DNA of 45,114 nucleotides, counting the filler, from Catajapyx aquilonaris (taxonomy: Eukaryota): the NCBI GenBank assembly GCA_000934665.2. It is 2 parts of 2 records of this genome, joined end to end, with 100 filler letters (N's around TTAATTAATTAA, not from the genome) between each part and the next. Parts side by side here need not be neighbours in the genome. Positions count along the whole stretch, not along the records: positions 1 to 22,502 come from KZ539427.1; 1 more part is not named here. One strand, 5' to 3'. Every line of letters begins with the position of its first letter. The first letter of the stretch is position 1. The notes below the pieces were generated by a model. It searched no databases, was not told the DNA's origin, and was given only the letters and a program-made list of their open reading frames with translations. Below are positions 218-40,475 of this stretch, piece by piece. A program made the position numbers and the translations under genes.

Positions 218-563
218 GCTTCCAGCTTTCAATCATTTCAATCTCATATCTTAGAAGAGATTTTATACTTTGCCAATGACTGATTACAACATGGGGGAGG
301 GCGACTGTCGGACTAGACCAGGGGCCACTTGTTGGCACAGTTCAACAGTCAAATTTAGTTCCGTCCCCCCCTGAATATACAGAATACATATTTTCCTGCA
401 TGGGAAACAACCTCCCCATAAAAAAATACTCCCAAGACTTATGAAGACAGATTTGTACGAGTATTAGTTGCCATATTTGCTACCCCTCGATTGAGCCCAA
501 CACCTTCAGTGGCTGAAACTTCAACTGCAGCCCAACAACACCAATTCTAGTCTTATACGTTAC

Positions 564-719
564 CTGTGAGGCTTCTTGTATGATCTTGTTAATCTTTTCC
601 TTGTCGAGACCCTCCATACCCGCCTTGGTATCATTCAACTCCATCAGTCGAAGCCCAGATCCAGCACCTTCCTGGGGCGATCCTGCCTTTGACGAAGACT
701 CCATGACCATTGCCATCAT
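564..719 (-). CDS. POLK: DNA polymerase kappa (Y-family), first coding exon; rest of gene runs off the left edge of the window
   Basis: Translation LRLMELNDTKAGMEGLDKEKINKIIQEASQ matches the characteristic POLK N-clasp (LNDNKAGMEGLDKEKINKII); GT donor at 563-562; in-frame TGA upstream at 734-732 supports ATG 719 (or a nearby ATG); candidate 5'UTR donor GTAAGT at 1096-1091. Confidence 0.9.
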
Positions 720-1400
720 CTCATCCAGATCTCATCTGTTCAAGTCGGTACCCGTTCAAGTCCTGTCTTGTTCAACTGCTGGTGTCCGCCAATCTTCAGC
801 GGGTCCTATATAAATAATAATGCATTTAGGATACATCCCTGGCGATTAAAGTATATAAATGATTAGAAAATCCGGCTAGATATTAATAGGATAGTGATAG
901 TGTTTCTTACCAACGCACCGGCTATGGCACCGTGATGGCACCGGTTCTTACCAAAACGATATATGCTAATATGCACGTAAAAGCATAGCTGCTATTAATA
1001 ACTGCTTAATTATGTAGTAGTTTTTTGATTTGAAATTGATAGCATGTTATTCCTGTCTCACTTTGAGGTACTTTTGGGTGTATTTTGCAAACTTACTCGC
1101 GACACGTGTCATTTTTTAATTTTATATTTAAAACGCGCAATGTCCCATTGACGGAAGCAATCAAGGTCACTTGCATTGCAACCTGCTTTTCAAAAATATA
1201 GGTAATATTTAAAAAATTGTCCCCTATTACACACCAGATATACGGTGGTACTGTACCTTATTTATCTGTGTTTCGTAACACTTTAGGTATAATTTGATGC
1301 TTAGTTTAATATTACATGTCTCTGTCATGGATTATGTCTGTCATGGTTATTCGTGTAATCTCTTCGAGAAAAAATATAATAGTGTAAACTATGTGAGGAT

Positions 1401-1619: not shown

Positions 1620-2273
1620 GTGAGGATCCACCTAAGGTCCTAAGTTAGTAAGGTCCTATAATAATCAATGCAATCTTATCAATGCACCACGACGTGATAA
1701 TAAATGGACGCCATTTATTACTCAAACAGATGAAATACAGTACATGATGAATACGGTATATTATCACTTCATATTCAAACATCGAAATTCAAGCAGAATA
1801 CTTAATATCGTGGAGATATGTGGTTATATGGCCAAAATTATCCGACTTTATGTGACGGATAATTTTAGATACTAATATTGTGGTTTTATTTGGATTCATG
1901 ATCCAAAATTAGGTCATTCAAATGAGAACAAAAGTTTTTATAATTGCGATTTCACCACCAATGTCACTATAATGATTAGGAGTTCTAATTTATGAGACAT
2001 CTGTTCGCTTCACATAAGCCGCCTCATTACTTGTATTTACATAGATGCACTATTTGAACACATATCATAAAAATACACATCGTATGTACACACGGTATAC
2101 ACTGATACAAAAAAAGCTAACATTCACACTCCATTATTTTTAGTACAGCTCTCTTCCCCCCACCCCCTACCCCCCACATAAAATAAATAGGTCGTTAAAA
2201 GCACATTATCACTTTTGAAGAACAGTCCAACACCAAATATCTGCTCACTGAGAAAAAAAAGTCTTGTCCCATA

Positions 2274-3849
2274 TTACGAACTCCATAGATGACATGCGCT
2301 TCTGTAGTTGCACATATTCTTGGGGCAACATGATCTAAACAGCCGGTATTGCTCATCCTGTCTACGTTGACGCTGCTGAAATGCTTGGTCCTCTTCAGCA
2401 ATTGCTTCTCTGACAGCCATCAAAATGTCGTCGTCGTCGAAGATACCCCACGCTGATCGACGCAGACCTGAACGGTTGTAAAACATATAGTATCAGTTAG
2501 GAGATGTAAGGTTTGATTAGCTGACAGTGACTTACGTCCATATGCTAGGTCTCTTATTCGTCTCGAGAGTCGACATGATTCTCGAACTTGGTCGTCGATG
2601 TATTCTCGTCCACAGTAGTTGACGCTGTTGGCACTGATGTATGACCAGCAGGATATTGGTGCCATGAGTGACGCCAGCAGAAGGAACCAAACTCGGTAGG
2701 AGCAAGCCTTAGGGAGTTATATCAAACAGCTATTAGTTCATGTAAGCCTAAGCTTATACAGTATAGGTCTACCTCTGGGGGAAATTACATTTAGGCTAGG
2801 AAAATATAGGTAGGGCCTAAGTAGTCTACCTGGGTATTACTATAGATGCAGCTGTACTACTAAAGTAGTATTACATACTTTAGACACTTCAAAGTCGTAT
2901 TACAGCTATGAAAAACATGTTATAAAATCTGTTCATTTGTTCTTTCATCTCGAGGACTATAAAATGTCGGGTAGACCTCTATAATGGTTAGTTCCTGTTT
3001 CATTAGTGCATTGAATGCTCTATTGTGAGAACAGCTGCTCCATTTTGCCAGTATACATAGTAGTATTTTATTACTGTCAAGGGATAACATATTAGTGTTT
3101 TCTTAGATAAGCTAGCACCACTAACGTAGGCTACGGCGTTTTACCCATTGGTGCACGAATGGGGAGGCTGGGATAGGCCGAGCGAAGGGTGATATCGTAT
3201 GTACTATTGTAGTCGGAACATGCAATATACAGTATTGTGTAGAGAAACACTATGTAGGACACGAAAATGCTGTATGTCAGCACTACTATAAACGTATTGA
3301 ATTTGGTAACTATTGATTCAGCCCTAATATTAGGGAATTATTACAATATGACTTATCATATCTATTATTTCATCTGTCTTATATTTATCATGTGAACCAT
3401 AAAGATCGACACAAAAAAACCTTAAAAATTAATCAGGATCAGTTTGTTACTTCAACATAATTTAATGGAGGCTAGGCTACAAGGGCAACAGGTCTCATTT
3501 GCAAGGAGAAAAAGTCAACCCCGATTCGTTAATCTAAAGTATAGGCACAGTGTAATGATCTCAAGTTCGTCTACAAAACATACTCAATTACAGAAGTCCT
3601 ATTTCTTAAATACACGCATCCGCATTAAAATTCAAAGCAGTGTAGTTTATCTAGATGCTAAATAGATATTGGCGCGGATTTTTTTTAAAAGCTGCGAGAC
3701 TTTGTATGCTACATGGGCTCTAAAATCAAGTTTAAATTCATCGTTCAAAAAGAATAGTGCAATTTGGGTAAATGCCTACATAGTCCTACATGTACGATGT
3801 ACTATGACTATATTAGTTTATGGAGTTCGCACAGCACTGTACTTACCAT
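2274..3849 (-). CDS. Insulin-like peptide precursor (122 aa), gonadulin/Dilp8-like cysteine spacing; coding exons 3849-3847 (ATG), 2707-2536, 2467-2274
   Basis: Splicing ATG|GTAAGT, AAG|GCT...GGA C|GTAAGT, CAG|GT gives one open frame: MACSYRVWFLLLASLMAPISCWSYISANSVNYCGREYIDDQVRESCRLSRRIRDLAYGRLRRSAWGIFDDDDILMAVREAIAEEDQAFQQRQRRQDEQYRLFRSCCPKNMCNYRSACHLWSS; hydrophobic signal peptide, B chain CG...C, basic cleavage sites, A chain CC..C..C; branch-point CTAAC in intron 2. Confidence 0.85.
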
Positions 3850-3877
3850 GGGTGATATGCAAGTGACGACTGCGCGA

Positions 3878-3981
3878 GAAATGTGCGCCGTCTGTAGCTC
3901 TCGACGCTTTTATACCGCCTTCCTGCATTCTTCGCAAAGGGGCTGGGCCAAGTAAAGAAACTGCAGCTATCTCAACCAATC
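3878..3981 (-). promoter_or_regulatory. Core promoter of the insulin-like peptide gene (TATA box, Inr-like element, CCAAT box)
   Basis: TATAAAA at 3914-3908 (-); Inr-like ACATTT with A at 3882, 32 nt downstream of the TATA T; CCAAT at about 3977-3981. Confidence 0.7.
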
Positions 3982-5336: not shown

Positions 5337-6319
5337 ACGTAATAAAACTGTCTGTTTATAAGCAGCCCGTTTGTTGAACAACTTAGGTGCGTTGTTGTTC
5401 AACACGCTACTACATACTTGCATAACTCGAAGATGTATAATATAGTAAGTGCGATTCATACAGCTGAATAATTAACCTTGGCGAAGAGGAAATCTCCAAA
5501 ACGGAGTGTGTCGGTATACAGTACCGGTACAAGACACAACCCGGCTCTGGAAGCAAATTATTGGTTTAGCAGTTCTGTATAGGCCTACTCATAAAAGTCA
5601 TAAGACATAAAGCCATAAAAGGTAAAGCTATCGGTTGAGCCATTTGAGTTGGAATTTGTCGGTACCTATATAGTATAGAGTATACCTACGTAGCTAAACA
5701 CATGACATAGAATTCACTCCCCGTAGGCTAATAACAAAAACATGAGGAACCATCTGGATCTGGTTTCCTCCGTTTCGGAACCTGTCACACGACTGTGCTC
5801 CTTCGCGAATTTCGCATAGCATACACCTTGGTTTGGAACCAGATTGCCAGCGTATGCATTATTCAGTCAGCATAGTGTGTTACGCAAATGCGTATATCAG
5901 TTTTAATTCCTGTGTTGGTGTTCACGTGTTCGAGTGTTTCTCTATGGTGACATACCACTGGGGCAACAGTTCTGGCTGAAACACGGTGTTTTTGAAAGAT
6001 TTATTGTAAATATCGGGTATGCCCATTTATTGGAGAGAAGCGCCTTCATGGGCTTCTTCCTCAAGGCAGAGATGGACATGTCCGATGCATACATTCATGA
6101 CTGCATCCGTTCAAGCAATGCACCCCAGGTGGGTATCAATACCTAGTAAAAATATTGTACCTTATTATAAACTACCCACAGTTAGTTAGCCCTAGTTTTC
6201 ATAGTAAATGTAGGTGTTCTAATATAGACCTTTAATAAAAAATTATTATTTTATGGTCATATTTGAAATATTCATTTTCGGATTTTCATTTTGAATGTAC
6301 AATATCATATAATGTCGGT

Positions 6320-7803: not shown

Positions 7804-8730
7804 TAGCAGAGTTGTTAGGCCTTCAGGCTGCCATTTAGGAGCTAATAGGTGCTAATCCCAGGAATGACCATCCTGACTTTGGACTATCCCTGTGTTGCTC
7901 TGGATCACTTCCAGGATGAATCCAAGCGTTTCCTTTGAGATTGACCTTGGCTGCTTACTTCTTGTCCTGCTCCTCTACAATGTTGTACAAAGGTCAATCC
8001 TGTACCTCCCTGAGACTTCCTTCGTTGCTTGCTCATGCTTATCTAGTCCAGTGGAGTTTTAAAAATCTTGTAATATTTATTCTTTGAGTTCACTGCATTT
8101 CAATGGAAAACCAGCTTGGAGACATAATTTTGTTGAGCAGGATCAAGAGTCAGTGCAGATCTACACACCATTTGCAACACCAGGAAGAGTAACGAAACTT
8201 ATCTTGAAATTCTCTCAAGTCTTCCTTTTACGAATAACTGGGGTATGAACAAATTATCCCTAGGAATAAAGCAGCCAAAAGTAGCGTCTCTTCAATCGAT
8301 ACATCACAGCAGAGGTTCATGATCTGTTCCAACTTCGTTACTAATTGGATCCCTTAATTAATATTTTCTGCCCACTAATCACCTATTTTTCATCTCGAAA
8401 GTGGCCATCAACCTGCAACTTGCACGTATTGCATTAATTTAGTTTTCTTGTTGATGCCTAAAAAACACAATGCATTTTTTTCCTTCAAACTGATTCGTAA
8501 ACCTTGACCCTAAGGATCAAATGGAAATGAACTCATTTTTTCTGTATCCAATAGTACATCAGCAGAAGGGGATAGGAATTTCCTTTGTCACTCTAGGGTG
8601 AGCAATAACATTCCCTCCAGGATTGACGTCAAGTGAGTTTTATTTTCAAGACACAAAGTAACTCCAAGCCATAATAAGAGTAACAATGCAGAAAGAAAGG
8701 AAATGGCAGAAAATTCATTTGGTGTTCTCA

Positions 8731-11700
8731 TTAAGCGCCAACGACAACCTTCTGAGGCCCCTTCTGGCTCATGCTTATTTTGTCTCCCATGCTCAAAGCC
8801 ATGCCCTGAAAAGAAATAATAACAATATAATAATATCCAGCACATTCAACTTCATATATGTCCAAGTACGACTATCAGGTAATTATTTACATTGTAGTTA
8901 TTTCTGTGTATTGTACTATAAGGATGTTAATTTGGACAAACAATTACCAAAAGAGCTGACCATGTATGACTGTAGATAATTATGTAGACTTTACTTTGTT
9001 AATGTTGGAGATTTTAGTAACGTGGTGAACAGTTTCTCTTAGCAAGTTGTTCACTTTTTTGAGGACATGCAAGATGTGCGTAATATTGAGTACCATCATG
9101 GTAAGGTTTTGTGAGACATAGCATTATGCACATATCTGGTGATTGGCTAGTACAGTGCTGGACATTAATTATGTCGTACTGGTAGCGACATTTTCCGATG
9201 CGGCAGAAGTGCGAAGAGAATTGATGGAGTGTGAACTGGGTGAGTAAGAAAAGGTAGGCCTTGGATGACGTCACCAGCTGTGGGCAATGGGGAAAAGGCT
9301 TGTCTCCCAGCTAGTGACGTCACCCAAGGCCTGCCATTTCTTACTCACACGGTACACACTCCATCAATTCGCTTTGCACTTCTGCCACATCAGAAAATGT
9401 CGCTAGAAGTACGACAGAATTAATGTCCAGCACTGTACTATGCTTAGGTCCTTGTGCATATCGACTGCTCAAGTCATGGGGTTGAATAACTAGGGCTCAA
9501 GAGTGAATCAGGGTTGAACCCAGAATCAAGTTGGATCTGTCTACATGATTTAAAACAAGCACAAGGTTGCACAACTCCAAGCACTGGAACTATGTCTCAA
9601 CCTGTTGTACAGTGCATGATAACCTAACTGAACACAAGTAAAATGAAAGTAAATTTACATCTGTTCTGATACACAAGTCAGAACTGTCCCTATGCATTCA
9701 TTCCACTTTAGCTAAAGTTGTTGTCGAAGATTTATTTTACACAAAACTTAGGTATGCATGAATGGTGCAGTACTTGTGTGAGCAAGAAACTAGTGTAGAG
9801 TCTACACAAAAGTGGGTCAGACTTCTGCTTGGCCTAGTCCACACTGGAAAATGTTGGTTCAGCTGAATTAGGCCTACATGTTGCAAATAATGCACCACAT
9901 ACCTGACTCTTAGCCCTAATGCGAATGTGTCCAACAACAGGTGCATCAGGCTTGTTTGGCGGCTTCTCCACACTCAGGTTTGCCAGTGCATCTTCTCCAA
10001 AGATAGATCGAGCATACAGGTTGGCAGCCATGAACCCACATTCACCAGAAAGTGCCTGTTGAATCAGAGTTTCATAGTATAAGAATGAGAAAAACTACAC
10101 AACAAAATTAACAGTGTAAAAGCATCAACTAGTGATAAAAATCACATTATGTAAAATTGAAAATAGGGAGTAGACATGAACAAGATTGACCTGACCATTC
10201 TTTGAATAAGAGACTCCCTTACTGCTGGGATTATTGCGGGTAACCCATTAATCTCGTACTTCAAGTGGGGTATGGAAATTATCATGATGATACATATGGA
10301 GGACTGCAGAATATCCTGGCCTGTTGGTTCATTATGAGTCTTTAGTACGAAATGGCTTTAGCCAGACAACAGCAAACAAATGCTACTTGGGGCAGGTTGT
10401 ATGCACATGGGTTAAGGTTAACTATGGAGTTAGGTGTTACCCTTAACTAATGTTCATACAACTGGCACTTAGCTATATAAATATCGTAGCTCTGGAGTCA
10501 AAACAGCATAACTCGCTTTTCTGCCGATTTCGGGTTTTTTATTCTGAAAATTTGGCATTTTGTGCTGCATCTGCCATCAAAACGGCGTAATTTTTTGCCC
10601 AATAGGAGAGAAGATATGGCCAGGTTAAAAGACTAAATCTCAATGCAAGAGTAATTTTTTTTTCCAGTTTTTTGCTCTCCTGAATAATTAGTATTATTCG
10701 AGTTACGTGGTTTTGACTCCACAGTGCCGATATCTTAAAACCGTCAAAATGGGTCTAGTGGATTTACCACAATATTCCACATGTGAAATTGAAGTATATT
10801 TAACCAGTAGTTTAAAAGGTAGTCATGATCAGTGTAAGATACACTCTTGCCTTTACCTAAAAAGTATAAAATATTTTCAATTCAATTTTGCATGAGTCAA
10901 CTTGAATGTTTATGATAAAATGATTGTTCTACTGTATATCAAATCAACTTCTAATAAAATTAGAGAAAATAAAATCAGTGCCATACCATGCAACATATTA
11001 TACAAACAAACAAAAACTCATCCATCTGAAAACTACACACATATTTAGTGATGAGACCTCCCCACAGCATTCTCACTCACCTTGTCTGGAGTGAGACACT
11101 TCATGTTAGTGGTCTTGATTAGATGAACAAGGTAATCGTTAAGGTCAGTGATGTTGGTGTTAACTGACACCTTATTCTCCCATTCAAATTCTGCCCACAT
11201 GGCACGGAATTCCGAGTCCGTGCAGGTGGCTGGGACTATGTAGTCGATTATATCGATGTGAATGTCATTCAGCACCACGACATTCCGGTCCGAGGTAGCA
11301 CCTGACACATCATACACTGCATAGAAAAGATAACTGGGTTAAAACTCTCAAAATAGTAATCACTTAGAAAAAATTTTATCAGAGAATTTTCAAGCAAGGG
11401 CTAACATTCAAAAGCAAAATGCTTGATTGCTATAATCTGGACAAGTTCATACCAATGTTGCCAAATATTATCCCATTTTCAGTGGAAGCAACCTTGACAT
11501 TGGCCTTAATATTGCAGAAATCATGTGGGGCCAATACAATAGGCTGAGGCTTCTCAACCAGTTTAAGATCACCCAGGGTAGCCAACTCCAAGGTGCAGTT
11601 CTGCAATGTGTCACCTAGAACACAGATAAAAAATATATATTGTACTCTCATGTCCATTATAAGCCATTAATAAAAATTCATTCCTTCAGGAAGAACTGCA

Positions 11701-13551
11701 TTATCCACATGTAGAGTGAATCAACAAGGATCCCTAATTTTGTGAATGTTCCTCATTCATGTGCTTTTTTTCTGCCACACACGTGAAGGGGCAAACCATT
11801 AGGACTCAGTAAGTACATCATTTGGTTTCTACTGATGCATGTAACATAATATTTTCTGCCTACTGGATAACAACTAAACAAAGACAACTTCTATAAGCAC
11901 AGTGGTCCTTCTCTGTTGATTCATCCTACATAAGATCACATTGGCACAAATTTGCATTCAGTCATTCTTAATCTGCATGCAGATGTATTTCCAGTCAGCT
12001 GGACACCACATAATTTTATACATAACATATGATCTTACAAGTACAGTAGTTTATCCAACTCCTTGGATTATCCGACCGTCCCGCTCCAGCAATACAGTCA
12101 AATGTCAATATAAAGCTCGCGCATATAATGCTTTCCTGCGTTTAATGCTCCTTTTTTTGGTTCCCTTGATCATTTCCATTGATCCCACATGTAACGCCAT
12201 CCCGCTTATAACGCTACTTTTGGGCGATCCCTTGAAGAGCGCTATATCGAGGTTTTACTATCAATGTATGTTTTCTCATCAAATACTGCAATGCAGGCCT
12301 ACTAATCATTTGTTTTGTATTGCCTTAGTTAAATTTTAAACAGCAGAGTGTGTACGTAAAAGATAAATACTTCTCTATTTCTTAGAAAAGCATAATATTG
12401 TAGATTATTACATGGTTTTTTAAATGCTTTTTGTTGTGTTTTCCTTTGCTCCTCGGATTATCTGACCTTGACTGTTATCCGACAATTCCCCAGTCCCGTG
12501 GGTGACGGATAATCAGGGTTGTTGTACTAAAACGTTAAAAAATTAAGATCTTTGATTACCTGTCTGGTTGACAACAAGGACATCAAGCACAATGTCATAT
12601 TGATTGACATGCACATAGGCCTCTGCATAGACCGGGTCAGAAAACCCAGTGAGCTGTGTGACTTTGTTTAGCTTGGAGGCAGCAATGTCAAGGGCCGCCC
12701 CATCCTTCTTGGTTACACCCATAGCCTGGCTTAGGCTCAGCTCAAAAACATTCTCACTCCCAGCAAGATCACCCTTTGAGGATAACTGCAAGAATGAGAT
12801 GGGGTCATCTGCTTGGACAGCCCTGGACTTGGCATCACTGCGGGACGATTGCTTCACTGTGGCCAACTCCTCCTCTGCCTTCTCTGCCAGCATTATTGAT
12901 AAGGCTTGACGGCAGTCAGACACAAATACCTAAAATAGCGGGCCAAAATGTGAGGAACAATTTGATATTCAATGTGTAAAAAGAGCAACACCACGCCATG
13001 GTATTCTACAGTGAAACTCTGTTGAACCCATGCACAGTACACACCTTAACCAACTGTGCTGGTCGCTCTGCAAGCACCTTGAGACATAGGGCAATTCTGT
13101 CTGCATCATCCTCAGTGACTGGTTTAGTAGGGAGTCCTGAGCGTCCCAAATGCAGCACAGAAGCCAATATTAGCATGGCCTCTGCACAAAAACGGTTCTG
13201 CTTGATGCAGTCCTCCTCGCTGTCTCCACAGAGAGAAGCATAACGCAGGGCCAACTTTGCCAAAGTAGGGCCAAGAGATGCTCCCAGGAAGAAGTCGCCA
13301 TCCATCAAGTATTGTCGGAGGGGTGGACGGTCCTGTGGTTTCTTTGGGGTACTTGACATGGTGGAGAAAGGACACATCAGAATGTAATTCTTGTACATTT
13401 AAAACAATTTTTGTGGTCTGCATCACATAAGGAGGAACAGACTTCGTTGTCATTTTACACGTAGTGTACAAATAAAATCCTATTTTAAAATCCTAATAAC
13501 TAGAAAAAATTAATGTCATCAATTAGATCAATTGATAGATTAGACAGTTGC

Positions 13552-13640
<89 letters not shown>

Positions 13641-16600
13641 TCATACCCCGTTATCAGCCATCGGCTCTTTAGGGGGGAAATTTGTTTTGCCCGGAACTCT
13701 TTGCTTTTCATTTTACTGTGCTCTTTGGGGTAGGATAGGGAAGGAAGGAAGCGGCTGTGGCCTATTAATTACGGAAGCAACTCCGGAATTTTCCTGGAAG
13801 GACCGTGGGAAACCACAGAAAACCACGGTCAGAGTTGCCGGCCCCGGGATTTTATCCCAGGACCTCCCGATTAGCAGTCGGACACCATATCCCCTCCTCC
13901 AAACTGCTTCGATGACACAGTTGCATAATCAATGATAAACCAAGGAAGTCATTAATCCCATACAAATAACACAGGATCAACCAGTGACTTCAAAATTACT
14001 ATGGTACTATCGCATACCAATTGTCTTTCTTTTCTACTGTTAATGAAGTGGGCCCCACTCCAAAAATATTTCTGGCTATGCTAGTGCTCAAAGCTTACCA
14101 TCATTCATGCAACTGGCTCTTAGTATATACTGCAACCAAAGGTCTATTCATCACTCACACTGCAGCACTAAAAGCAGACTGCGTAGCATATGTCCCATCA
14201 GGTGTCACCAACTTCTGAACTGGCATCTGCTGGGTCATTAGCGAATCATCCTGTTTCTCCCCAGCAGCCAAGCGCTGCTCATCCTCCACAATGGGAAGCT
14301 ACAGTGGGATATGATATACATGGATTGATCATATCTGTTGAAAAACACACAGGAACTAAATAAACGTACCTCTCCAAGCAACTGCCTGATCTGGTTCATC
14401 ACTGTCTGAATGTCTTCTGGTGAAGTAGCATACTCCCCAAGGATCCAAAGAGCAGCACGGTGGACACGCACCACTTTTATGCCCGGAAATGACTCCAAGA
14501 GACGCTGAAAAGGGGGCCATTATTGACGGCATAGCACTCCACAGGGAAAGTAACAGGAACTGTTAATGCCATGTGACTTTACAACCATAATTTGATGAAG
14601 ATTAAACAGCTAAATACGTTACTCCAATTTTACAACTACCAACACCTTTCCACAACAAGTCATATCCTACCTCAATGATGAGTGGTCTAAGGGGCTCAAA
14701 CTTCTGAATGGCTTCCCTGACAAAAACAAGCACATCCACTGCAGCTAACTCATTGGTATCAGAAAGAAATTCCATGAGAACAGGGATGACGGTTGCAGCC
14801 ACATCTGGAAACTTGATACAACAGGAGTGCAGAGTGCGAACCAGCAGTTGGCGATAGCGGCCCGTGTCCTCATGTTCCACCGTGTTGTGAGTCTTCGACA
14901 CCTCCTTCTTTAGCACCAAAACCATCTCTTCAATGTTGCGAGAGGACACCAGCTCCATTGCTAGCCAGGTGAAACAAACTTCAGTTAGTTGGGGGTTTCT
15001 GCCTTTTTTGTACTGACAGTTTACAATTAGGCAATGAAATAAATTGTGAATATTTTTCTCCAAGTTCCAATTAATGAACATTCAAGCAACAAATTAGGTA
15101 GGTCAAGAGCGAAGTCCAGATTGCAATAGGAACATAAATTTAGGAGTCAGATGAATAGTGAATTTACCATCTCTAATCAACTCTGACCCATATCGTAAAT
15201 TTATATGAAATGTTAGGTTAACAAGTTTAAGTTATGTAGTAAACTCCTACAAAAGTACAACAACATGAATTGAGGTGCTCAGAGGAAGAACGGCATAGCC
15301 CAACTTGAGTTCATTTTGAGAAAAATGATGGACAAATTTTACAAGTGGAATATGTGAGCTTTGACATATCCCAATTCATTTGGTACTTCAGCACATGAAA
15401 GGTAGATGGCAGGAGAGTACAACAGCACTACAATCTCAAAATTGGAGGTCAGTTGGGATATGCCGTTCTTCCTCTGAGTACCTCAATTGTGTATATTTAA
15501 CACTTAATCACCAACGTGGGGTCATTTTGGACCCCACAATGTAGTTAATACCATCGCGATTAATAAATTTGATATGAAATGAATAATGGCAGGCCTATCT
15601 ATATTCCTCAGACATACTTTCTTCGATCCAATGACAAATTTTGACATCAGTAGAATTTTTTTTTGTTGAGTTAACGGTACTTTTATGCTGCTAAGAGTCC
15701 CTGTGGGGTCCAGATATACCCCACGTCGTAGCCAATGTACATAATTTTTTAGAGAACCCATCACAGCAAATTGTATTTTATAAAGTGTGAGTGTTGTTAT
15801 TCAGCAATAAATATTGCTCAGAACTAAAATCTTGCCAACCCTGCAGCTGGGAATGTTTACGTTATAAGCCATTACTTACTGCATCGAGCTGGAAGGCTAC
15901 GAAGCTGCAATAACGGAGTCTCAAGTCCCTTATGACTCAACTAATGGTCACAGGAGATCGAATTTTTTTTACACATACAGATGAGAATACAGGCCGAATT
16001 TAGCGGGGAAGAATGGCTTTAGTGCTATTAAGTCAAATTTTTTAAAAAATGAAAACTGCGTGGGGTCCGTAAAGACCCCACGTCGTAGCCAATGTATGGC
16101 AGATTCACGTTGGTGATTAAGTGTTAAGTGAAGTTTTAAGTCTCTAAGCATCAGCCAAAGTATATGAGCCCGCCTAGTCATTTAGATTCAAATTAACATC
16201 AACTCCATGTCCAAACCTGTGCAAATCCCATTCATTAAGCCATAAATTTGAGTTGCCCAAACCAAAGTAGGATTTGCAGTTGTCATCAACCTGTTAACGG
16301 AACCCTGCAGGGAGGTATTTTTAGTTTTACGTACAACTGTAGCCGTGTGTCTTTAGTTTTAATAGAGTAGGTCATGAATTGTTTATGGCTGCTTTGCCTG
16401 TAGTGAGAAAAAAATTGGGAGAAGTTGTAGAAGCTATCATTAGAATATAAGAATACTCCAAGCTAAGTACAGTACATATAACTATAGGCTTGGTCTAACA
16501 GGCCCTCCTCCATTCTAAAATGCATCTGCATGAAGGGTTCATCAGTTTTGGAAAACAATAATTTCATCTTGTTCCAGTTAACCATTTGTTGTCTATTATA

Positions 16601-18972
16601 ATACAACCACACAAAATAATTTTTTTTAATGCACTGGTATAATCCCGATGGAAATTTCTTTCACCATAGCCTTAGGTAACTCTTCTTGTTTCTATGTATT
16701 TATGCCACCTGTGTCGTATTTTTAATGGTACGACGTCATAGGCCAAAGGTCTCACTCATTGTAAAGAAACACTTACTGCACAAATTTAAATACACATAGC
16801 TCCCTGCCAAATATTTCCCGGTAAGTGGACAAAAGTGTCCTTGCTCCTAATTGGCCGGGCGGACTGCTCAGAGCTCTAGGCAGTGGCCGCTTGCCACCTG
16901 GTGGCTCACAAGACTTCTGTTTAAACTAGACCTTTGAAAATTTTTAAATTGACACTTCATGTTTTCATAATTTATCAGAGGGAGTGGGCAAACATGTAGA
17001 ATTATCTTGGATTATTACGAGGGGTGGAATCCGCCTAAAAAAACCATGTAGATGTCGCAATAGGATAAAGTCACCTTCTCGTGCATAGCATATGGACAAA
17101 ATGTTTATTCTGTTCCCAACCCCTGGGTCGCCTTCATGTTTTTAGTGGTCGTGAGGAAGGCAAGGAAAAGGCAATTAAAATCAAGAGGAAAAAAACAGAA
17201 GAAAAAAACAAGGCAAAGAAAATTTAAGGGTGGAAATTCATCTCAAATCTACATAAGCATTGTGCCAGGGTGAACATTTTGGTGATAATTCTTCTTGGAA
17301 AAATCCAGGATGGGGTCATACGGGTCGCCCGACAAGTTGTCCATAGGGTCGCGACGAAATCAGGTTGGGAATAATGCTGGATAGTCAGGATAAACATGTT
17401 GTCAATAGAGTTGTACCATTCTTTTTTATGAGAGAGACTGTACATGGTTCTCTCATGATGCAACTTGGGTTTGTAGGTCTCAGACGCTTCAGCCCCATCT
17501 TGTGCATGAATCGAGAGCGAAACCAATGGTGCCAGATCCAGTGATTTTCACCTAGGGCGCTATTTTTAAACCCCCCACGCAAAGAGTGCATAATGCAGCG
17601 GGAGACAAAAGGTTAACCAATAAATTCTTCGATACAAAATTATGACAACACATCTAACATTCGAAGCTAGCCTGAAGATTGCATGGGCTATCTGCCAAAA
17701 GAATTGCATTGCACATATTAAAAGGTGTATATCTTGCTGATTTGGTCCCCATGTGTAAGCCAATCATCCCTGATTGCTTCAATAACTGACAAAAATAAAC
17801 AGAATAGAACAGCTAGGGGTTCACCTTGCATAACACCCTGCTTAATGTTCATTGCTGGACGAGTCTTTAAAATTGCAGATATAAGACTCTTCTAGCCTAT
17901 GGACTGACCTAGATTAAGAGTCTTCTTCCTGACTTCAAGGTCTGGTGATGACAAGACCCTCAGGATATCCATGACAAGATCTTGTAGCACCCTCTCGTGA
18001 GTGGGGTGATCCTTCAGAGCCACCAGCCTGTCCAACACAATCAGCTTAACATTGTTATCACTCTCCTTCACTATCAGATCAATGTAGCAACTGGCAGCAG
18101 CTTTGATGGCTGTTGGAGCAGTGGACAATGTAACTAGAGTGCCAGCTGCCTCATAGCGAACTGCTGCTGAACTTGAGTTCAGCAGGTTGTAGATGCAACG
18201 GATGAAGCGTGAACGCTCAGAGGGGTTTGCATGACAAACCTACAAACATAAGAAATAGGAGATACAGTTAGTAGTAATAAAAACTCTTCCTGTGGGAGTT
18301 CAGCGAACTTCACTGAACTATGTTAACACACTGTTCAAACACCTCATGTCAAACTGACACCAACCTTGTAGATGAGTTCAACGATGACAAGCTGCAAGAT
18401 GTCTCCAAAGGAGTTCACCTGATCAACACATGAACTGAGGTAATTGAGAGCTCGGTCTTGATCAACATGTACCAGCATCATGAAAGCATTGCGCTTGCAG
18501 CTCATGTCCTGCTCCTGCTCCAGGAAGCTGGCAATCAGCTCTGGGGCATCCGGGATCAGAAACTCAAAGTTGCGATAGATTGTGAAGATGGCCAGGACAG
18601 CATTGCGGCGCACATAGGAATGCCGATGCTCCAGGCAGTTTCGGATGGCTGGCATGAGGGGCTCCAGCAGCTCAGGCTCCTTCAGCTTACACAGAAAGCG
18701 GAGGGTGGAACCACGGATGAACTCATTGGGATGTTGCAGGTCCTTGCGGTACGCATCACACACCAAGATCATCTCCTGCATAAGTTTGCCATCTTGTGTG
18801 GTCTTGGGAACAATTTCCCAAAAGACAAGCAGCAACTTCTTGATGGTGTGGTCTTGCAAGGGCAGCACAAACCGTATTATGGTCATCAACAAACCAGGCA
18901 GTTTTTCGCCATTTAGAATCATGTAGATGGTCTTCTTCAGAGCTTCAATCTTCTGCTTCACATCCCCCTTTT
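8731..18972 (-). CDS. COPB1: Coatomer subunit beta; exons 18972-18365, 18239-17909, 14960-14671, 14504-14370, 14298-14159, 13351-13045, 12929-12560, 11614-11453, 11316-11081, 10055-9903, 8805-8731; first coding exon (~30 aa) not found
   Basis: Highly conserved beta-COP peptides ([99 protein letters not shown]); GT-AG boundaries and phases are consistent; stop TAA at 8733-8731. Confidence 0.97.
9153..9435. mobile_element. Foldback MITE (Tc1/mariner-type, TA TSD) in the last COPB1 intron
   Basis: Termini CAGTGCTGGACATTAATT / AATTAATGTCCAGCACTG; almost the whole 283 bp is an imperfect palindrome; flanked by TA. Confidence 0.85.
10481..10733. mobile_element. Degenerate MITE
   Basis: Inverted termini ATATCGTAGCTCTGGAGTCAAAACAGCATAACTCG / CGAGTTACGTGGTTTTGACTCCACAGTGCCGATAT. 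Confidence 0.6.
12044..12524. mobile_element. pogo/Tigger-like MITE with a second Tigger-like MITE nested at about 12095-12260
   Basis: Outer TA-CAGTAG start with GGATTATCCGAC / CGGATAATC subterminal motifs; inner termini CAGTCAAATGTCAATATAAAGCTC / GAGCGCTATATCGAGGTTTTACTA. Confidence 0.55.
13552..13640. repeat. (AAT)n microsatellite, about 29-30 units, forming the SINE tail
   Basis: Perfect trinucleotide run. Confidence 0.98.
13557..13916 (-). mobile_element. tRNA-derived SINE with (ATT)n tail, resembling insect Lm1/Talua-type SINEs
   Basis: 13-bp TSD ACAGTTGCATAAT at 13544-13556 and 13917-13929; body GGAAGGAAGCGGCTGTGGCC...GGAAACCACAGAAAACC...CCCAGGACCTCCCG; family resemblance is from memory. 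Confidence 0.8.
15272..15484. mobile_element. MITE with GAG..CTC termini and 4-bp AATT TSD (Sola-like)
   Basis: About 34-bp TIR GAGGTGCTCAGAGGAAGAACGGCATAGCCCAACT / AGTTGGGATATGCCGTTCTTCCTCTGAGTACCTC; AATT at 15268-15271 and 15485-15488. Confidence 0.8.
15501..16123. mobile_element. piggyBac-like non-autonomous element
   Basis: TTAA TSD (15497-15500, 16124-16127); perfect 18-bp TIR CACTTAATCACCAACGTG; internal direct repeat GTGGGGTCC..CCCCACGTCGTAGCCAATGTA near 15702 and 16059. Confidence 0.88.
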
Positions 18973-19230
18973 CTGAAAATGTCCAATGTAAAATACATAA
19001 GGTTTTTTCTCTCTTACCAGGAACTGAGCACTTGTAAAGTGAATTCCTCAGCCTTGTGGACTATACATTATTTTGCACTTTTTGTTGCAGTATGCCAAGA
19101 AAATCAACATCATTCAGATATGAACCTGTCTAAATTATCACCATATGAAAAAAGGCAGCATATCTCAAAAGTCTAAGTACATTAGAAAATAAAAGAATTG
19201 GTGAGGTAAGAATTACCTAGGTCACATGTC

Positions 19231-22602: not shown

Positions 22603-23296
22603 GGGGGGGAATCACGTACGCATTGATTCAACTAATCTTCTAATGAAATAAAAAGTTATCACGTGGTAACACTTCCTGGAAAGAATACAATCACTCTTGC
22701 TTGCAGGCAAATAATGTCTCTTGCTAAGTTAGTCAGGTGTCAAATTAGTTTCTAAACTAAATTCCTTCAAATTTAATAGCCAAGTATAACTTATATTAAA
22801 TTGATATTATTAACAAAATCAAGAAGCTGGCTATGTGTCTTGTTTCCAACCCCATAAGGCAAATGCATGGAATGATAATAAACCATAATCTTCTCGAAAA
22901 GTTTTATAGGCCTATGCCACCCAATCTTATCAGTTCGAAAGCAATGTACAAATATATTTTTCTAATTAATGCAGTGGGGCAAAAAAATTTACTTCCTGGA
23001 TTATCTCACTGCCCGACACCGCATATCCTCTGACATTAGTTATAAAGCAGGGTGAAATGTTCATGAACCTATCGCATTCTGTCGTTGTAACATTTGTGAC
23101 GTATGGGGTTTGGGGGAGCACTACAAATATTTCCCTGCGCACTTTCGCCACCGGAAGGTCTGTTAGATATTGATATCAAGTCTTGGAAAGCAGCGCAAAC
23201 CGGCTAATAATTTCCGATTCATAATTTGTGCAAATTATAATAAGAGTGAGTCGAGCGTAGGGCATCCAGTCGGCAGCCAATTCAATCCTGAGCAGC

Positions 23297-24469
23297 ATGG
23301 AGGGATGGGTTCTTCGGTGGACTTGCTTGTGCATTGCAGCTTTGACCTCATTACCTGCTATCCTTGGGGAAGTGGAGGAGATGGGCGAAGGTGATACTGA
23401 ATGCCCTGATCCGTACTACCGCCTGGGACGACATTGTTACTTCTTCAGCGGTTCACTCTCTTTCAACTGGTGGACAGCTGGAGAATTTTGCCGGACATTG
23501 AAAGGAACACTCGCTGACATTCATGACGAAGAGGAAAACGGCCTTATTTCAAGTTATATCAACACCAGTAAGTATATACTAGTATAGTTTCATTTTATGG
23601 TGAAAATAATATTTTATGTATCGTAATTATTTACTGTGTAGCAAATCCTGGTTACTATTGGATTGGAGGCTACGACCTAGGACACCGTGGTTATTGGTAC
23701 TGGGAATCTTCCCGAGAGCCCATGACATTTACCAGACTGGCACAAGGCACACCTCATGTAGTAGCAAAAATGGTCAGTTCAAAGGATCAACATTGTCTTA
23801 CTGTCCAAGTTACCAGTGCACTATGGAAGAGGGCAATGTGCATGCAACCTTTGCCCTTTGTCTGCAAGAGGAGCGATTCTCAATGTGTAGACGTTCAGCA
23901 GAATAATGGTAGGCCTACTTGATTATCTACGTCAGAAAAAAATGTTCCCTATCTGTTAATATCGTAATATTTTCCTGGAGGTTTCGGAAGTTGTCCTGAA
24001 TCATTCGTCAGGCTAGACACGGGATGTTATTTCTTCAGTGACAATCTGGAAAGTGACTGGCCTACCGCATCCGCAAGTTGCAACAAATTAGGGAGTCGCT
24101 TGGCTATTGTCGAGACCCCCGAAGAAAAAGCAAGCCTCGAGCTTCATGTTCAGCAAAGTGAGTTGTTCAATTTCCTTCTCATTTGATATCATTGCTTACT
24201 CATTCGAGTGGTATTTTTCAGATTACCCCAACACTTCCTTTTGGCTTGGAGCAGTCAAAGTTAAGGGTGAATGGGTGTGGGAGGGGTCTGAGAACGATGT
24301 GCAGGAATGGGAGGAAGACTATCGCGAGGATGGTCAGCAGCAATTGGTTCATGGAGGCTGCATGCTGATGGCGGAACCGAGGAATTCATTTCAGAGAAGC
24401 GAACAAGACTGTGGGTTTCCCCACAACTTTGTGTGCGAGGCTGGAATAGCTGATGGGGAACTCGCATGA
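23297..24469 (+). CDS. Secreted dual-domain C-type lectin-like protein; exons 23297-23567, 23642-23908, 23981-24157, 24222-24469
   Basis: Signal peptide MEGWVLRWTCLCIAALTSLPAILG; two CTLDs each with CP..CYFFS..W..A...C...LA.I, WIG/WLG and C...C.....FVC; phases consistent; AATAAA near 24623. Confidence 0.9.
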
Positions 24470-26369
24470 CAACGTACATATATTCTGGATCTTCAGTGAC
24501 ATCTGTGACCTGTCATCTTGTTGTGTATGATGAACGCAGCAACATCATTATTTGAAGAAAAATATTTTCATTTATCATTTTGATACTCGAATTTCCTTTA
24601 TGATATTTTTGTAAACGAGGAAAATAAAAAAAACAGGCTCCATCTTATGCAGCTTTTTAAATCAAAGAACATGTTGAGACAGCATAACAATTATACCGGA
24701 ACGTTTTTTTTCAGCACACACTGCAACATTGCTTCTCTCTTCGCCTATAGCAGTATAGATCTGCATCGTCATGAAACACCATGCTCTAGGCCAAATGCAC
24801 CTGAGTGGATTGAATCAACAGATAAATAGTTACTATGAAAACATAAAGTATTGAGATGCTGTAGAAGGACTTTCCCCTGAAATAAAGCAAATAAACCCAC
24901 CTGGGGAGCTGCTAGGGTGAGTGGTTTGGGAAGCAATAATTTATTGACGCCCCCTACCCTCCAGAAAGGTGGCTTCAGAAACGCACAAAGCTTCAGGAGC
25001 AGTGTTATATTGTTTAAATTTCTAGTTTGTTGTATTTCTTAGGAGACGCAACTGACATTGTAGAAACAGATCGTATATGCCTAAGGCATCATTGGCCATG
25101 GTTTCGTAAGTAAGCACTCAGCAAACTAGAGCTTCAATGGTTCATGATGGTTCGGTGTGTAGCAATATTTCTACTTTTTAAAAAGGTTTATAGCCAAGCT
25201 TCTGTGCTACCCCTGCTACCATCGTAAATCACCCGGACGCATGGGCAGTGAGACCAACACACCTGGAAAGGAAAAGCCATTAGACACTCCTCCTTCCTTG
25301 TCACCAAAGAATAAAAGCGAGAGCAATATTTCCTGGAGGAAATCTTTCAGACCAACAGGTATCATGACCCATTATTATAGCGTATTAAAAAGGGCTGCAA
25401 GACATGACAATCGCAGGACATAAATAATAAATTACACTTCAGAAGTACCAATAAGAAAATTGAGCAGTTGAAGGCTAGTAATAATGAAGTTATATTGCAG
25501 ATCTTGGTGACGAAGTATGCAACAATTCGCAATTAGAAAGAGGAGGTATGAGGCGCTGCGTCTCCTGTCGCGAAATGCGGATCGTCAAATTATTAACCGG
25601 ATGGTAAGGGTTCAATAAGTATCAATAACCATCAATATAATATCACAAAGTAATTATTCACTTAGCATTTCCACTGGCTGGCCAGAATGCCCTGGATGGT
25701 CTGTTCAAGCGGAGTGCAAGAGACGACTCCGGCTAAATTCTTCCTGCCATTCACGTTAGACAGTGTGGGGTTGGGGGGTAACACAGTGAGAGTTTGTGTG
25801 TTCATAAATAAATTTTAAGTAATGTACTGACGGACCAAAATTGACCTTCATTTGATCATGGAGAGATTAGATCCACCTGGCCTGTGCTCTCCGAAAAAGT
25901 TTGCTGTGATGGCCAAATTACGTCGAGTCTACGTGTTGTTGCCAAAATTGGTTCAGGAGAAATGGTGCATGCCCACTCATTTCATTTAAACATACAAAGC
26001 ACTGGGAGGCGGGAATATCGGGGAATATAATATGACCTTTTATTTCTTCAGCAGGAATATCACATTTGAGTGTGGAGACGTAATCGGGAGGGGACGGTAC
26101 ATTGAGACATTTACACGTGCTCTATCATAATAAGCCACGAAAAAAGAAATTATTGTTTACTTTCTGGTAGTAGAAATCTGACAAAAACACACACAAAATT
26201 ACATTTTTTTCCATTTCATAAGTATCAGTAATGACAACTTACTCATAAGTCACTCAACTCACACCCTGTATATATGCCCTTCCCATAGATATTTGACCAT
26301 GACAAATGCACCTAGTAATCCGTGTCACGTGCTTGTCCTTCCTTGATTACTCATTGCGATGCTCAAAAT

Positions 26370-27913
26370 ATGCGCCTCTTGCAGTACTTCGTTCTCAAAA
26401 GGCAAGATATAGGTATGCAGGGGGCCGTACCGAGGATCCGTCCTGGCCAAGTACAGGTGACGGAGATTAGACAGGTGGTGAGTGCAGTGAGCAACCACGT
26501 TAGCTCCTGTCACAACTGCGTCTACCTGACCACCGAGTACTCCTGCCCGTGGATCGCAAGATACCGCACTTTCCTTGCCCTTCCTGGAGACACGAAGGAG
26601 GACACCATCAACTACGCCTTGAGCCCTGGCAGTCGGGGACACCTTACGGCTCCTGTACGAGCTGCACTGGTGGACACTCTGATGGACTGCAGCATAGTTC
26701 ATGTCGAGATTCCCTGGGCATTTCACGACGAGGCCAACATGGTCGGTGTCAAGCCACAGCATTGTTACAGGAAGGCCATGAACCACGTCATCGAGAAGGG
26801 TGCCAAGCTTCGGACACTCTTGGCGGTGGCGGCGCCAGACCCACCCCAACAACATGCGAATGATGATCAGGAGGTTAGGTACAACATGTTCGAAGAGTGG
26901 CTGAAGAAAGTAGGGATCAAATGTTCCAATTTGGCCAGGCTTGCGGTTACCAAGTACACTGGAGATGAGGTCAATCTGGGTAGGATATTAGCTTGTCCCG
27001 AAGGAACGGGTCAGCCGTTCACCAATTTGGTAGAAGTCATCATGCAGGTCAGATTGGACCATTTGCATTTGACGTGAGAAGTGACTTTCAACGTATTATG
27101 TAATGATTTTTCAGGTAACTCCTGGTGGTGCGAAGACAATGTTGAACAAGTTACCAAGTTTTAGATCACTTACGACTGCCTTCTTCAAAATCAACGTCAT
27201 CAATCCTGTAGACCATACACTGAGGATCACGGTTACTGGTTATTACAATCAGACGCTGCAGGAACTTCAACCGGTTTGAGCTGTTGTAATTTTCACACAA
27301 ATTCTGTAGCTATTCACAGGCATCATTTCAGGCATTCCCTTCACCTTTCGAGTTAGCCGTGCAAGGAACAGTCCAGAGGCAGTCGTCGGCATCGCCAGCC
27401 CTTCCATCAATCCAGTTTATGCCGATGGTCCAGGATCTAGATGCTGATGGGCAACAACCCTCGACGTTGAACTTATGCATGTTGAGCAATCTCTACCATG
27501 ACTTGACTAGACTGGTCCTGATCCGGGTGGCCTGCACTTCTAATGGGGATATTGTCCGCTTTCCCCAGTTGAAAGTCCTTCAGCTGATTGGAATTATTCC
27601 ATCTCATTTGGACCTGATCTTCCAGGATGCCATCCAACTAAGCCATCTTTGCATTTCGGAAATTGGAGATTTTGGGCCACTGATGGATGCAGTGCATAGT
27701 GGTCAGGTACTGAATGGCCTTTTAGTGCTAGAAATTGTCAGACCCTCGGATTTTAACGTGGATATATGTATCTTCTTGCTGGATAAGTTGCCGTCGGTAT
27801 ACTTCCTGTATGGTGCTCGCAGTTGGGGTTGGGGACAGGGAGAAATAACTAATTTCAGGCATTATGTCGCCCAATGGGGCAGGGTCTTTGTAGTGAATTT
27901 TGGAAATCTTTAA
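26370..27913 (+). CDS. Uncharacterised ~470-aa protein with degenerate leucine-rich (RNI-like) repeats; exons 26370-27047, 27115-27273, 27332 (or 27320)-27913
   Basis: Three open exons joined by short phase-0 GT-AG introns; LxxLxL motifs (LTRLVL, LKVLQL, LSHLCI, LLVLEI); AATAAA near 27976; start codon uncertain. Confidence 0.65.
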
Positions 27914-29006: not shown

Positions 29007-30347
29007 TTATTGTGTAATATCCACAATTTCATCATCACACAAGTCCTCAGTTTGCTCCATGTAGGCCTTAATGATTACACATTTGGCAACACCACAATCA
29101 CATGGGATGGGATGAATCTCAGTCTCTGGATCCAGCATGGTGAGGCCAATGTCATACTTGCGAGAATCTTCACTACTCTGCTTGAGATCAAGCTGCCATC
29201 CAATAACTTCCCCTTCTTCAACCAGCACTGTGGCAGGCAACACCAAAGCAACCTGTTTCCAGTGTGTAATCTTCTGGTTTGGCGATGTCGACAACAGGTG
29301 ACCCCCTGGAAAAATACACTCAAACCACACACACAAGCCCTGCAACTTTCCAGCCTTCAGAGCTGACACAAATTTCGTATCGTGGATCCCTCCAACTTCT
29401 GCAGGTGTAACCTTATACAAATCCCAGTCTAATATTAAGGTCGGCTCAGCCAAACGGTCATCTGGAAAGATTTGGGTGATCTGAGGACCATTAATAATTG
29501 CTGCTAATGCATGTGGCTGCACCGGAGTAAAGTCAAAGCCGTACAATTTGGACGACCAAAAGTGAACTGAGGTAGAATAAATTGAAGGCAGTGAAACAGG
29601 GCAAGCAAAAAGGCGAGCTTCTGAAGGGAAAAGATGGCCATCAGGCACCAACAAGTTGTCACGTGCATACAGCACAGACGAAAGCATTGACTCGTGTAAG
29701 AGGTATATTCCCATCCATTCTGAAACTATGACATCTGCTTTTTCTGGCAATGTGGCATCTTCCACTCGAGAGTTGATGACCTCCACCACAGCCTCGAAGC
29801 CATTCTTGGACACAATCTCTTTCAGGATAGAAGCGGTGCTGCTTGCTTCAACTGCATACACTCTTCTGGCACCAGCACTGGCGCTCAGGAGGGACAGAAT
29901 GCCTGTTGAGCACCAATTAATAGCATTTACCTCTGAAGTCATGCAAATGTTATATACCAACCCAGTCCTGCTCCAACATCGAGGACAACCTTCCCTTGGA
30001 ACAGGTGATTGTTCCTCTCGATGGCCACCCGGTACGCTTCAACCCGAGAGTCATCCTCCATCATGGTACGGTGTACCTGGACATGATAAACGGTGCTCAT
30101 GACAACAACACTCTACAACGTGGTCGCAACAAGCATCCTTTACGTCCAGATCTTGGTAGCTGGCGTAGTAAGGATGGTCCGTCATCTCCGGCTGCTGGTG
30201 GTCCCCTCCTGCTGGCCCCTCCACTTCCTGGTCTCGCTGCATGGTTGCTGTCCCCTCTGGGTCGGCGCGGCGCACGTGGTCCTGGCACCGGCTCCAAAAA
30301 GTGTTCACCGGGATATTAGTCCCCATTCTTCCCGCCAGATGGTGCAT
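29007..30347 (-). CDS. Type I protein arginine N-methyltransferase (Art8/PRMT6-like); exons 30347-30144, 30076-29962, 29902-29007
   Basis: YYASYQDLD|VHRTMMED (YFxxY-like helix), motif I VLDVGAGLG|ILS, post-I VYAVEAS, double-E loop SEWMGIYLLHESML, THW loop, C-terminal HPIPCDCGVAKC; start ATG uncertain. Confidence 0.92.
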
Positions 30348-30800
30348 CCATCTCTCCCTTATGACGACACCAAATATGGCGGACTCTGGTCGAGTTGTTT
30401 TTTCCGATTCTTCCGCCTACAAAGTGCGCCTCTGCCTTCCTCGCCCACTGGCTGTGTGAGTGGAGGGGGCACTGACACCTCCCTCGCACTGCACTCTCCA
30501 GGCCCTCTGCCCCTCTGCCACACCAGGCCAGGAGGCCTCTCCTCCCTCTCCATTGGGCGAGATTGATATCCCTCCGTCGGAGATACGTGCTTGCGTGTCC
30601 TTGGGGATCAGCTGCTCCACCACATCAAACTGCGGAGTTGCTGCCTGTCAGAAGGATCGGGCCTGGTAGGTACGGGGTCTGCTGGGAATGAGTTGTTATG
30701 GCCGGGGTGGGTGGGGGGGACGGTCATGTGGGTCATGTGCCCCGGCGGTTATGTCACGGTTGCCGGGGGTCGATCCATCGCATCGCTGGCGTTACCCATT
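30100..30800. promoter_or_regulatory. GC/CpG-rich putative bidirectional promoter (PRMT / TBC1D9)
   Basis: CpG-rich island between divergent genes; YY1/Pho-like AAATATGGCGG at 30372-30382. Confidence 0.55.
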
Positions 30801-39493: not shown

Positions 39494-40475
39494 GAAAAAT
39501 ATATTGTTAGGGACATGTTAGAAAGTTTCCATGCCAAGTGGTTTCAGGAGCTAGAATTGCAACAACAGCATCTCATGAAAACATGATCACTAGGATATTT
39601 TTTTGTGATCAGAATGCGTGTGGGGTTTCAAAGCGAGAAGCTCATTTCTCTTATTGCTCCTTGAATCGATTGGATGGATGATGATCATATTCTAACCAAA
39701 TCATTTACATTTATGGGCAATGTTGGGTTTTTAATAACTGCAATTATAGTGCTGCTATCTTATTTTATTATTGTCACCATTTTTGTGTTTTTTAGCAATA
39801 TATCACATTCCCAACAGATGCATTTTCTCAATAGTCATTTTTCGGAGACCAAAATTTTCTACCATTTTTAATACCATGCGACAGGATTATGTTCTCTACA
39901 CAGCCTGAGTTGAAGACAATGCATCAATGTCTAGGTATCTGTATAGTTTTCATCACAGTCAGGTGCTGTCACCTCATGTACAGTGTAAGTAATGTAAAAC
40001 AAAGGATAAATAAAGAATCTGTATACAAATATTATAATATCAGACATTACTGTATTTTTTATTCTCTGGTGACCATAACTGGCATAACAGGACACACAAC
40101 TAAATTTGCACATTTTCTGACTTTTGCTATTTTTTCCACGCATTGGAGATATTTAGTTCCATCTTCTACTCTGCAGGGAAACAACCAGATGGTGACAGAA
40201 TTAGGGCTTGAATGAGTCAATTTTATTGGTCCTTACATAATAATTCTTGTGGACTTTCAGGACGTGTTAATATGTGTTCATACTTCGCTATTTTATTGAT
40301 TTTATTTTTATTGTCGTTGGCCTTGCAGCTCAACTTGACACTTGGCATGTACTGACAACAGTGACATCTAATAGCAGGAGTTCCGTGATTCAACATACAA
40401 TATTCCTCTCTCACCAATTGAATAATTCATCCACCTTCCTCTGAAGGAGAGGAGCTTAGGTTACTGAGGCAGCTC

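Follow-up and report, generated by a model that had tools for sequence, protein, structure and literature searches.

Results

A spliced minus-strand gene for a secreted-type precursor

The window, that is, the whole stretch of 45,114 nucleotides analysed here, carries on its minus strand a three-exon gene. Its product, read from the open frame and the contig joints, is a secreted-type precursor of 122 amino acids. The gene is made up as follows, from its 5' side:

3908-3914, minus strand: TATA-box-like element by sequence, about 60 nt upstream of the ATG; function putative
3847-3871, minus strand: exon 1, 5' UTR ending with the ATG (3849-3847), GT donor directly after; from sequence and 25 contig letters, which set the visible 5' limit rather than the true 5' end
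2708-3846, minus strand: intron 1, 1139 nt, GT-AG, phase 0, immediately 3' of the ATG; from a contig joint (CT..AC on the plus strand)
2536-2707, minus strand: exon 2, signal peptide, B chain and start of the C peptide; from sequence and contig
2642-2707, minus strand: predicted signal peptide, residues 2 to about 23; hydropathy peak 2.5 over residues 7-15, cleavage site by eye
2573-2614, minus strand: B-chain core C-X12-C, Cys33 to Cys46; from sequence
2558-2563, minus strand: Arg-Arg 50-51, candidate B-chain end at +4/+5 from Cys46; from sequence, cleavage putative
2468-2535, minus strand: intron 2, 68 nt, GT-AG, phase 1, within the C peptide; from a contig joint
2274-2467, minus strand: coding part of exon 3, acidic C peptide, A chain and stop (at 2274); from sequence and contig
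2292-2330, minus strand: A-chain core CC-X4-C-X5-C, Cys105 to Cys117; from sequence
1808-2273, minus strand: 3' UTR spanned by the contig, AATAAA at 1890-1885, poly(A) site unplaced; from contig and sequence

The first-pass annotation had reported the cysteine spacings C-X12-C for a B chain and CC-X4-C-X5-C for an A chain, and both were confirmed in the product of this gene: Cys33 (2614-2612), Cys46 (2575-2573) and Cys105, Cys106, Cys111 and Cys117 (2330-2292). The interval 2289-2614 thus extends from the first B cysteine to just beyond the last A cysteine. By themselves, the B and A motifs are not beyond chance. A six-frame scan of the window returned 12 CG-X9-12-C matches and 2 A-type matches, and A-type motifs near a stop, of which 2 were observed, averaged 0.52 and numbered at most 4 across 60 shuffles. 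It is the splicing, not the motifs, that carries the case. The B and A motifs are read in different frames and are brought together by removal of the 68-nt phase-1 intron. A contig of 856 nt from run X1 spans 1808-2465 and 2534-2706 with 0 mismatches in both listed pieces, omits exactly the introns of 68 nt and 1139 nt, both with GT-AG ends, and continues for 25 letters past the second joint; it is unspliced across the 3' UTR down to 1808. The splicing evidence comes from this single run, the only one listed, whose kind and tissue are not on record, but which also omits five introns of the neighbouring COPB1 gene and therefore behaves like RNA. The hormone gene is real and spliced.

Within the precursor, the C peptide lies between two R-X-R-R furin-type sites (residues 59-62 and 91-94). 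Ten residues separate the second of these from the CC of the A-chain core, and five residues follow the last cysteine. The signal-peptide cleavage rule and the insulin disulfide pattern used in this work are general knowledge; cleavage after residue 21 or 23, placed by eye, would take away Cys3 and Cys21 and leave the six core cysteines. A start at the second methionine (residue 16) was rejected, since a precursor beginning there would have no proper signal peptide and the contig joins the upstream ATG exon to exon 2. A form that retains intron 2 and encodes the B chain only was also rejected; its frame is open, but it has no contig support and an open run of that length is unremarkable. This exon-2 frame (2420-2716, minus strand) continues across the 68-nt intron as far as a stop at 2420 and would add two new cysteines.

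A phase-1 intron in the C peptide is the typical insulin-family position according to PMC8286064 and PMC11863921. The order of parts, with a signal peptide, a two-cysteine segment, a basic site, a linker, a second basic site and CC-C-C near the stop, is likewise the insulin-family design. Both features speak against the idea that this is some other secreted cysteine-rich peptide without an insulin fold, its layout being coincidental. Such a reading would fit the failure of either exon to match Pfam Insulin and the lack of a match among solved structures, but the Pfam scan met half of the domain at a time, and we hold it to be very improbable.

Neighbouring genes and the lineage of the host

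The hormone gene is flanked by two genes:

480-731, minus strand: first coding exon of DNA polymerase kappa (POLK), E 1e-6 to the solved human protein; runs off the window start
about 8620-19100, minus strand: COPB1 (coatomer beta), matched in 11 pieces, with contigs that skip five of its introns

POLK lies 1.5 kb downstream of the hormone gene stop and COPB1 4.8 kb upstream of the gene. Neither aIGF nor dilp7 was found beside it, the flanks being POLK and COPB1, and in the six-frame scan of the window no other insulin-type A motif fell within a plausible gene.

Several other features were noted along the window. Between the hormone gene and COPB1, a short open frame (about 6000-6150, plus strand) resembles by eye a decayed reverse-transcriptase motif. 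At 23260-24470 (plus strand), at least three exons with C-type lectin pieces (Pfam) probably represent one or two small secreted lectin genes. Two long open frames of 252 and 207 amino acids at 26319-27913 (plus strand), with no Pfam match, look leucine-rich-repeat-like by eye and possibly belong to a divergent F-box/LRR-type gene. A protein arginine methyltransferase gene with a 343-codon open frame (PRMT_C, Pfam) occupies 29007-30400 (minus strand), a RabGAP-TBC gene (Pfam; by eye TBC1D8/9-like) about 33900-39500 (plus strand), and a short-chain dehydrogenase exon (Pfam) 41087-41413 (minus strand). Two trinucleotide microsatellites of about 30 copies each are located at 13552-13640 and 43775-43864.

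COPB1 was used to place the host. In a FastTree phylogeny of 62 of the 120 matches plus the window, the window fell outside a 31-row clade of named crustacean, myriapod, chelicerate and non-arthropod rows (support 99). In an IQ-TREE phylogeny of 16 named matches plus the window, it was sister to all eight winged insects, with support of 100/99 for the eight and 87/80 with the window included. Judged from this one gene, whose named rows include no springtail, dipluran, silverfish, remipede or branchiopod, the host of the hormone gene is probably a wingless hexapod and not a malacostracan. An echinoderm origin, to which a similar-looking part of the C peptide had initially pointed, was rejected on the COPB1 trees.

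This placement bears on a further reading, in which the peptide is an androgenic-gland hormone (IAG or androgenin), a Dilp7-type relaxin or an aIGF. Given the probable wingless-hexapod host, IAG is unlikely: reports of it come from Malacostraca, whereas the window COPB1 falls with the winged insects (87/80) and away from the amphipod and stomatopod rows. A Dilp7-type gene, as described in PMC11863921, should carry a phase-2 intron as well as a spacer ahead of the B chain, neither of which is present here, and an aIGF (compared through 10 of 70 matches) requires a long C-terminal extension on extra exons, whereas the window frame stops five residues after the last cysteine. The spacing gives this reading some footing, as CC-X4-C occurs in two and X12 in one of the five arthropod relaxin sequences seen, which come from 10 of 37 matches. 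It is nonetheless largely refuted already by the gene structure, and we attach almost no probability to it.

Searches for relatives

Every query consisted of one exon or less, which halves the signal. With the exons scanned separately against Pfam, exon 2 had no match and exon 3 gave only sub-threshold matches to unrelated families, with no Insulin match. No relative was found for exon 3 or exon 2 in a word-indexed search of 5.8 billion proteins, covering longer proteins only, and phmmer with exon 2 against 1.84 billion cluster representatives gave 0 matches at E 0.001. Four sub-pieces of the precursor, compared with solved structures, returned just two unrelated chance matches, and both exons were without a usable match in the ESM Atlas. 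Metagenome contigs contained no relative either, since all five loci retrieved were rejected: four were acidic C-peptide look-alikes within a 256-aa open frame of GC-rich contigs, and the fifth was an intergenic chance match in a bacterial-looking contig.

Searches of the open-access literature returned no gonadulin report for wingless hexapods, including Diplura, and no report on insulin-like peptides of Folsomia candida together with dilp8. The main text of PMC4770511, on non-pterygote hexapod neuropeptides, has 0 mentions of insulin, ILP or relaxin, and supplements 1-12 of the 17 that accompany PMC11863921 contain none of six wingless-hexapod genus names.

The lack of a homolog, in 1.84 billion representatives for exon 2 and in the 5.8-billion set for either exon (longer proteins only), could be taken to mean that the gene belongs to a separate early-hexapod ILP subfamily. 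Such a subfamily would have a unique X12 / X4 / X5 frame and an A-chain C-terminal helix that is nearly deleted, and its receptor would be the orphan LGR5 (GRL101-type) or a diverged second insulin receptor, not LGR3 or the canonical insulin receptor. The absence of this frame from 43 gonadulin and 79 insulin rows agrees with it, as does the occurrence of LGR5, an orphan, in hemimetabolous insects. Against it, each query was one exon of about 60 amino acids, with limited sensitivity, and PMC7357564 states that gonadulins escape BLAST and are difficult to detect unless a close relative is available. Since gonadulins also vary widely in spacing, orphan status is expected for a gonadulin, and we rate a separate subfamily as improbable.

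Comparison with published gonadulins and insulins

The peptide was compared with the sequences in Spreadsheet S1 of PMC7357564, whose protein column was scored by eye and counted by hand. The gonadulin set comprised 43 rows (49 minus 6 'not found'); the insulin set comprised 79, two of them partial without the first B cysteine (n=77 for that feature). One insulin protein duplicates another, the Drosophila and Bombyx neuroendocrine ILPs are absent from the set, and the rows are non-independent, with many spider and scorpion paralogs. The scores were:

C-X12-C in the B chain: gonadulins 21/43, insulins 0/77; window peptide, X12
[KR]R at +4/+5 past the second B cysteine: gonadulins 14/43, insulins 0/79; window peptide, present
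Non-acidic residue before the A-chain CC: gonadulins 38/43, insulins 1/79; window peptide, Ser at -1
Tyr before the last Cys: gonadulins 0/43, insulins 79/79; window peptide, absent
Gly after the first B cysteine: gonadulins 7/43, insulins 75/77; window peptide, Gly (insulin side)
CC-X4-C, first A gap of 4: gonadulins 0/43, insulins 13/79; window peptide, X4 (insulin side)
Last A gap of 5: gonadulins 4/43, all flies, insulins 0/79; window peptide, X5

The X12 / X4 / X5 combination was found in none of the 122 rows scored (43 gonadulin plus 79 insulin). Gonadulin spacing itself varies, with a first A gap of 3, 5 or 7 and a second of 5, 8 or 10 in the 43 rows; X8 is present in 26 of them, from Daphnia, spiders, a mite, hemimetabolous insects and Hymenoptera. 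Positions 2-5 of the window B loop are basic, acidic, aromatic and aliphatic, like bug gonadulins in the table, and an aromatic followed by an aliphatic residue at positions 4-5 occurs in 6 of the 21 gonadulin rows with X12. Decapod gonadulins have an Arg three residues before the A-chain CC; the window peptide has Phe at -3 and Arg at -2, one position off. Their introns are reported to be all phase 1; the window gene also has a phase-0 intron after the ATG.

The first-pass annotation had taken the spacing as a pointer to a gonadulin/Dilp8-type peptide, giving C-X12-C and CC-X3-C-X5-C for the Drosophila hormone, and these spacings agree with the published Drosophila row. As evidence, the two halves of the argument fare differently. 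X12 is a fair pointer, although it is not exclusive to gonadulins because one of the five relaxin sequences seen also has it. X5 carries little weight: only four fly rows among the 43 gonadulins share it, against the 26 with X8, so the likeness to flies is probably convergent and would represent two independent shortenings. The lean towards a gonadulin, away from insulin-receptor ILPs and IAG, stands all the same, mainly through the residues around the cysteines and the host lineage, which the annotation had not cited.

The same tally bears on the origin of the peptide as a fast-evolving, lineage-specific offshoot of the insulin-receptor ILPs (sirps). Its action on an insulin receptor, as a ligand or an antagonist, would be weak, local or confined to a gland, and it would perhaps co-evolve with a diverged receptor copy. 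The Tyr-Cys-Gly start of the B core is typical of insulin rows, cockroach and termite sirps other than atirpin regularly have CC-X4-C (PMC10148640), and gland-specific ILPs such as BgILP8 are described in PMC12364350. The neuroendocrine insulin and sirp marks, however, are all missing from the window peptide: X11 (77/77 insulin rows), X8 (79/79), an acidic residue before CC (78/79) and Tyr before the last Cys (79/79). Derivation from a sirp needs four independent departures from these invariant or near-invariant features among the 79 insulin rows, and also the gain of a gonadulin-type basic pair after the second B cysteine, seen in 0/79 insulins. We therefore consider a sirp origin unlikely, if still worth entertaining.

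Discussion

A probable gonadulin of what is probably a wingless hexapod

Taken together, these results lead us to favour, with somewhat better than even confidence, a very divergent gonadulin (Dilp8/relaxin-type) hormone of a probably wingless hexapod, acting through LGR3. Sequence and contig establish the spliced open frame of 122 codons, the order signal peptide-B-C-A, the six core cysteines and the basic cleavage motifs. Four features of the tally place the peptide on the gonadulin side: X12, the basic pair past the second B cysteine, the non-acidic residue before CC and the lack of Tyr before the last Cys. The B chain follows close behind the signal peptide, without a phase-2 intron or a long spacer, and the layout, judged from the gene sequence, is of the relaxin/Dilp8 type rather than the Dilp7 type as these are set out in PMC11863921. 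Both ends of the C peptide are furin-type and not KR, which fits a non-neuroendocrine source.

Several findings run counter to a gonadulin. Gly after the first B cysteine and CC-X4-C are insulin-like, and of the four supporting features two consist in the lack of a residue, as is expected in any degenerate ILP as well. Synteny with aIGF or dilp7, a supporting but not required feature, is also absent; gonadulins of cockroach, termite, stick insect, spider and locust are reported to adjoin aIGF.

By analogy with the family, the gonadulin precursor would enter the secretory pathway and form three insulin-type disulfides, Cys33-Cys106, Cys46-Cys117 and Cys105-Cys111. Cleavage by furin at both R-X-R-R sites would yield a hormone of two chains, with the A chain extended at its N terminus. 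Since no more than five residues lie between the last two cysteines, the C-terminal helix of the A chain should be very short, perhaps down to about one turn. In DILP5, the A-chain Val-Val-Asp and the final Tyr are insulin-receptor contacts (PMC12569033), and their counterparts are missing in the window peptide. As the A chain thus lacks residues with which insect insulins engage the insulin receptor, an LGR3-type receptor is favoured: the hormone would most likely signal in neurons by way of LGR3, a leucine-rich-repeat GPCR, and cAMP. PMC4640092 reports that Dilp8 increases neuronal cAMP signalling via Lgr3, yet in a ligand-capture assay described there Dilp8 bound InR and not Lgr3, so the choice between LGR3 and the insulin receptor that the first-pass annotation had posed is drawn too sharply. 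The most likely source of the hormone would be the gonad, and its most likely role, as reported for locust and fly gonadulins, would be to link reproduction or tissue growth with feeding and moulting.

If the gene encodes a gonadulin, the family would extend to wingless hexapods. These animals have neither metamorphosis nor imaginal discs, and the gene would therefore be suited to testing whether Dilp8-LGR3 signalling ancestrally served reproduction or acted as a checkpoint on growth. On this reading, the shortening to five residues ahead of the last cysteine would have happened twice, in flies and in the host lineage, which suggests that LGR3 ligands may not need the A-chain C-terminal helix on which insulin-receptor ligands depend. 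The advance is real but incremental, since strong divergence and varied cysteine spacing are already familiar traits of gonadulins.

Relation to known systems

Arthropod relaxins (Dilp7 orthologs) resemble the window peptide in a first A gap of 4 in some and X12 in one scorpion paralog, but the window gene lacks their phase-2 intron, the spacer or F-domain before the B chain and their well-conserved sequence. With sirps (LIRP type, the Blattella and Periplaneta ILPs) it shares the Tyr-Cys-Gly B start and the phase-1 C-peptide intron, and CC-X4-C is found in many cockroach and termite sirps; their X11, X8, Tyr before the last Cys and acidic residue before CC, on the other hand, are all lacking in the window peptide.

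Drosophila Dilp8 and the Glossina and Hermetia gonadulins share with the window peptide both C-X12-C and the five residues between the last two cysteines. They differ from it in a first A gap of 3 instead of 4 and a longer C peptide, and no residue likeness is evident by eye.

The gonadulins of hemimetabolous insects, Daphnia and spiders described by Veenstra 2020 (PMC7357564) are like the window peptide in C-X12-C, the basic pair at +4/+5 past the second B cysteine, the absence of Tyr before the last Cys and the short tail, and have, as it does, an extended A chain without the Gly-Ile/Val-x-acid-acid start. They are unlike it in being mostly CC-X3-C-X8-C, with a first gap of 3, 5 or 7 and in none of the 43 rows of 4; they seldom carry Gly behind the first B cysteine, and several adjoin aIGF.
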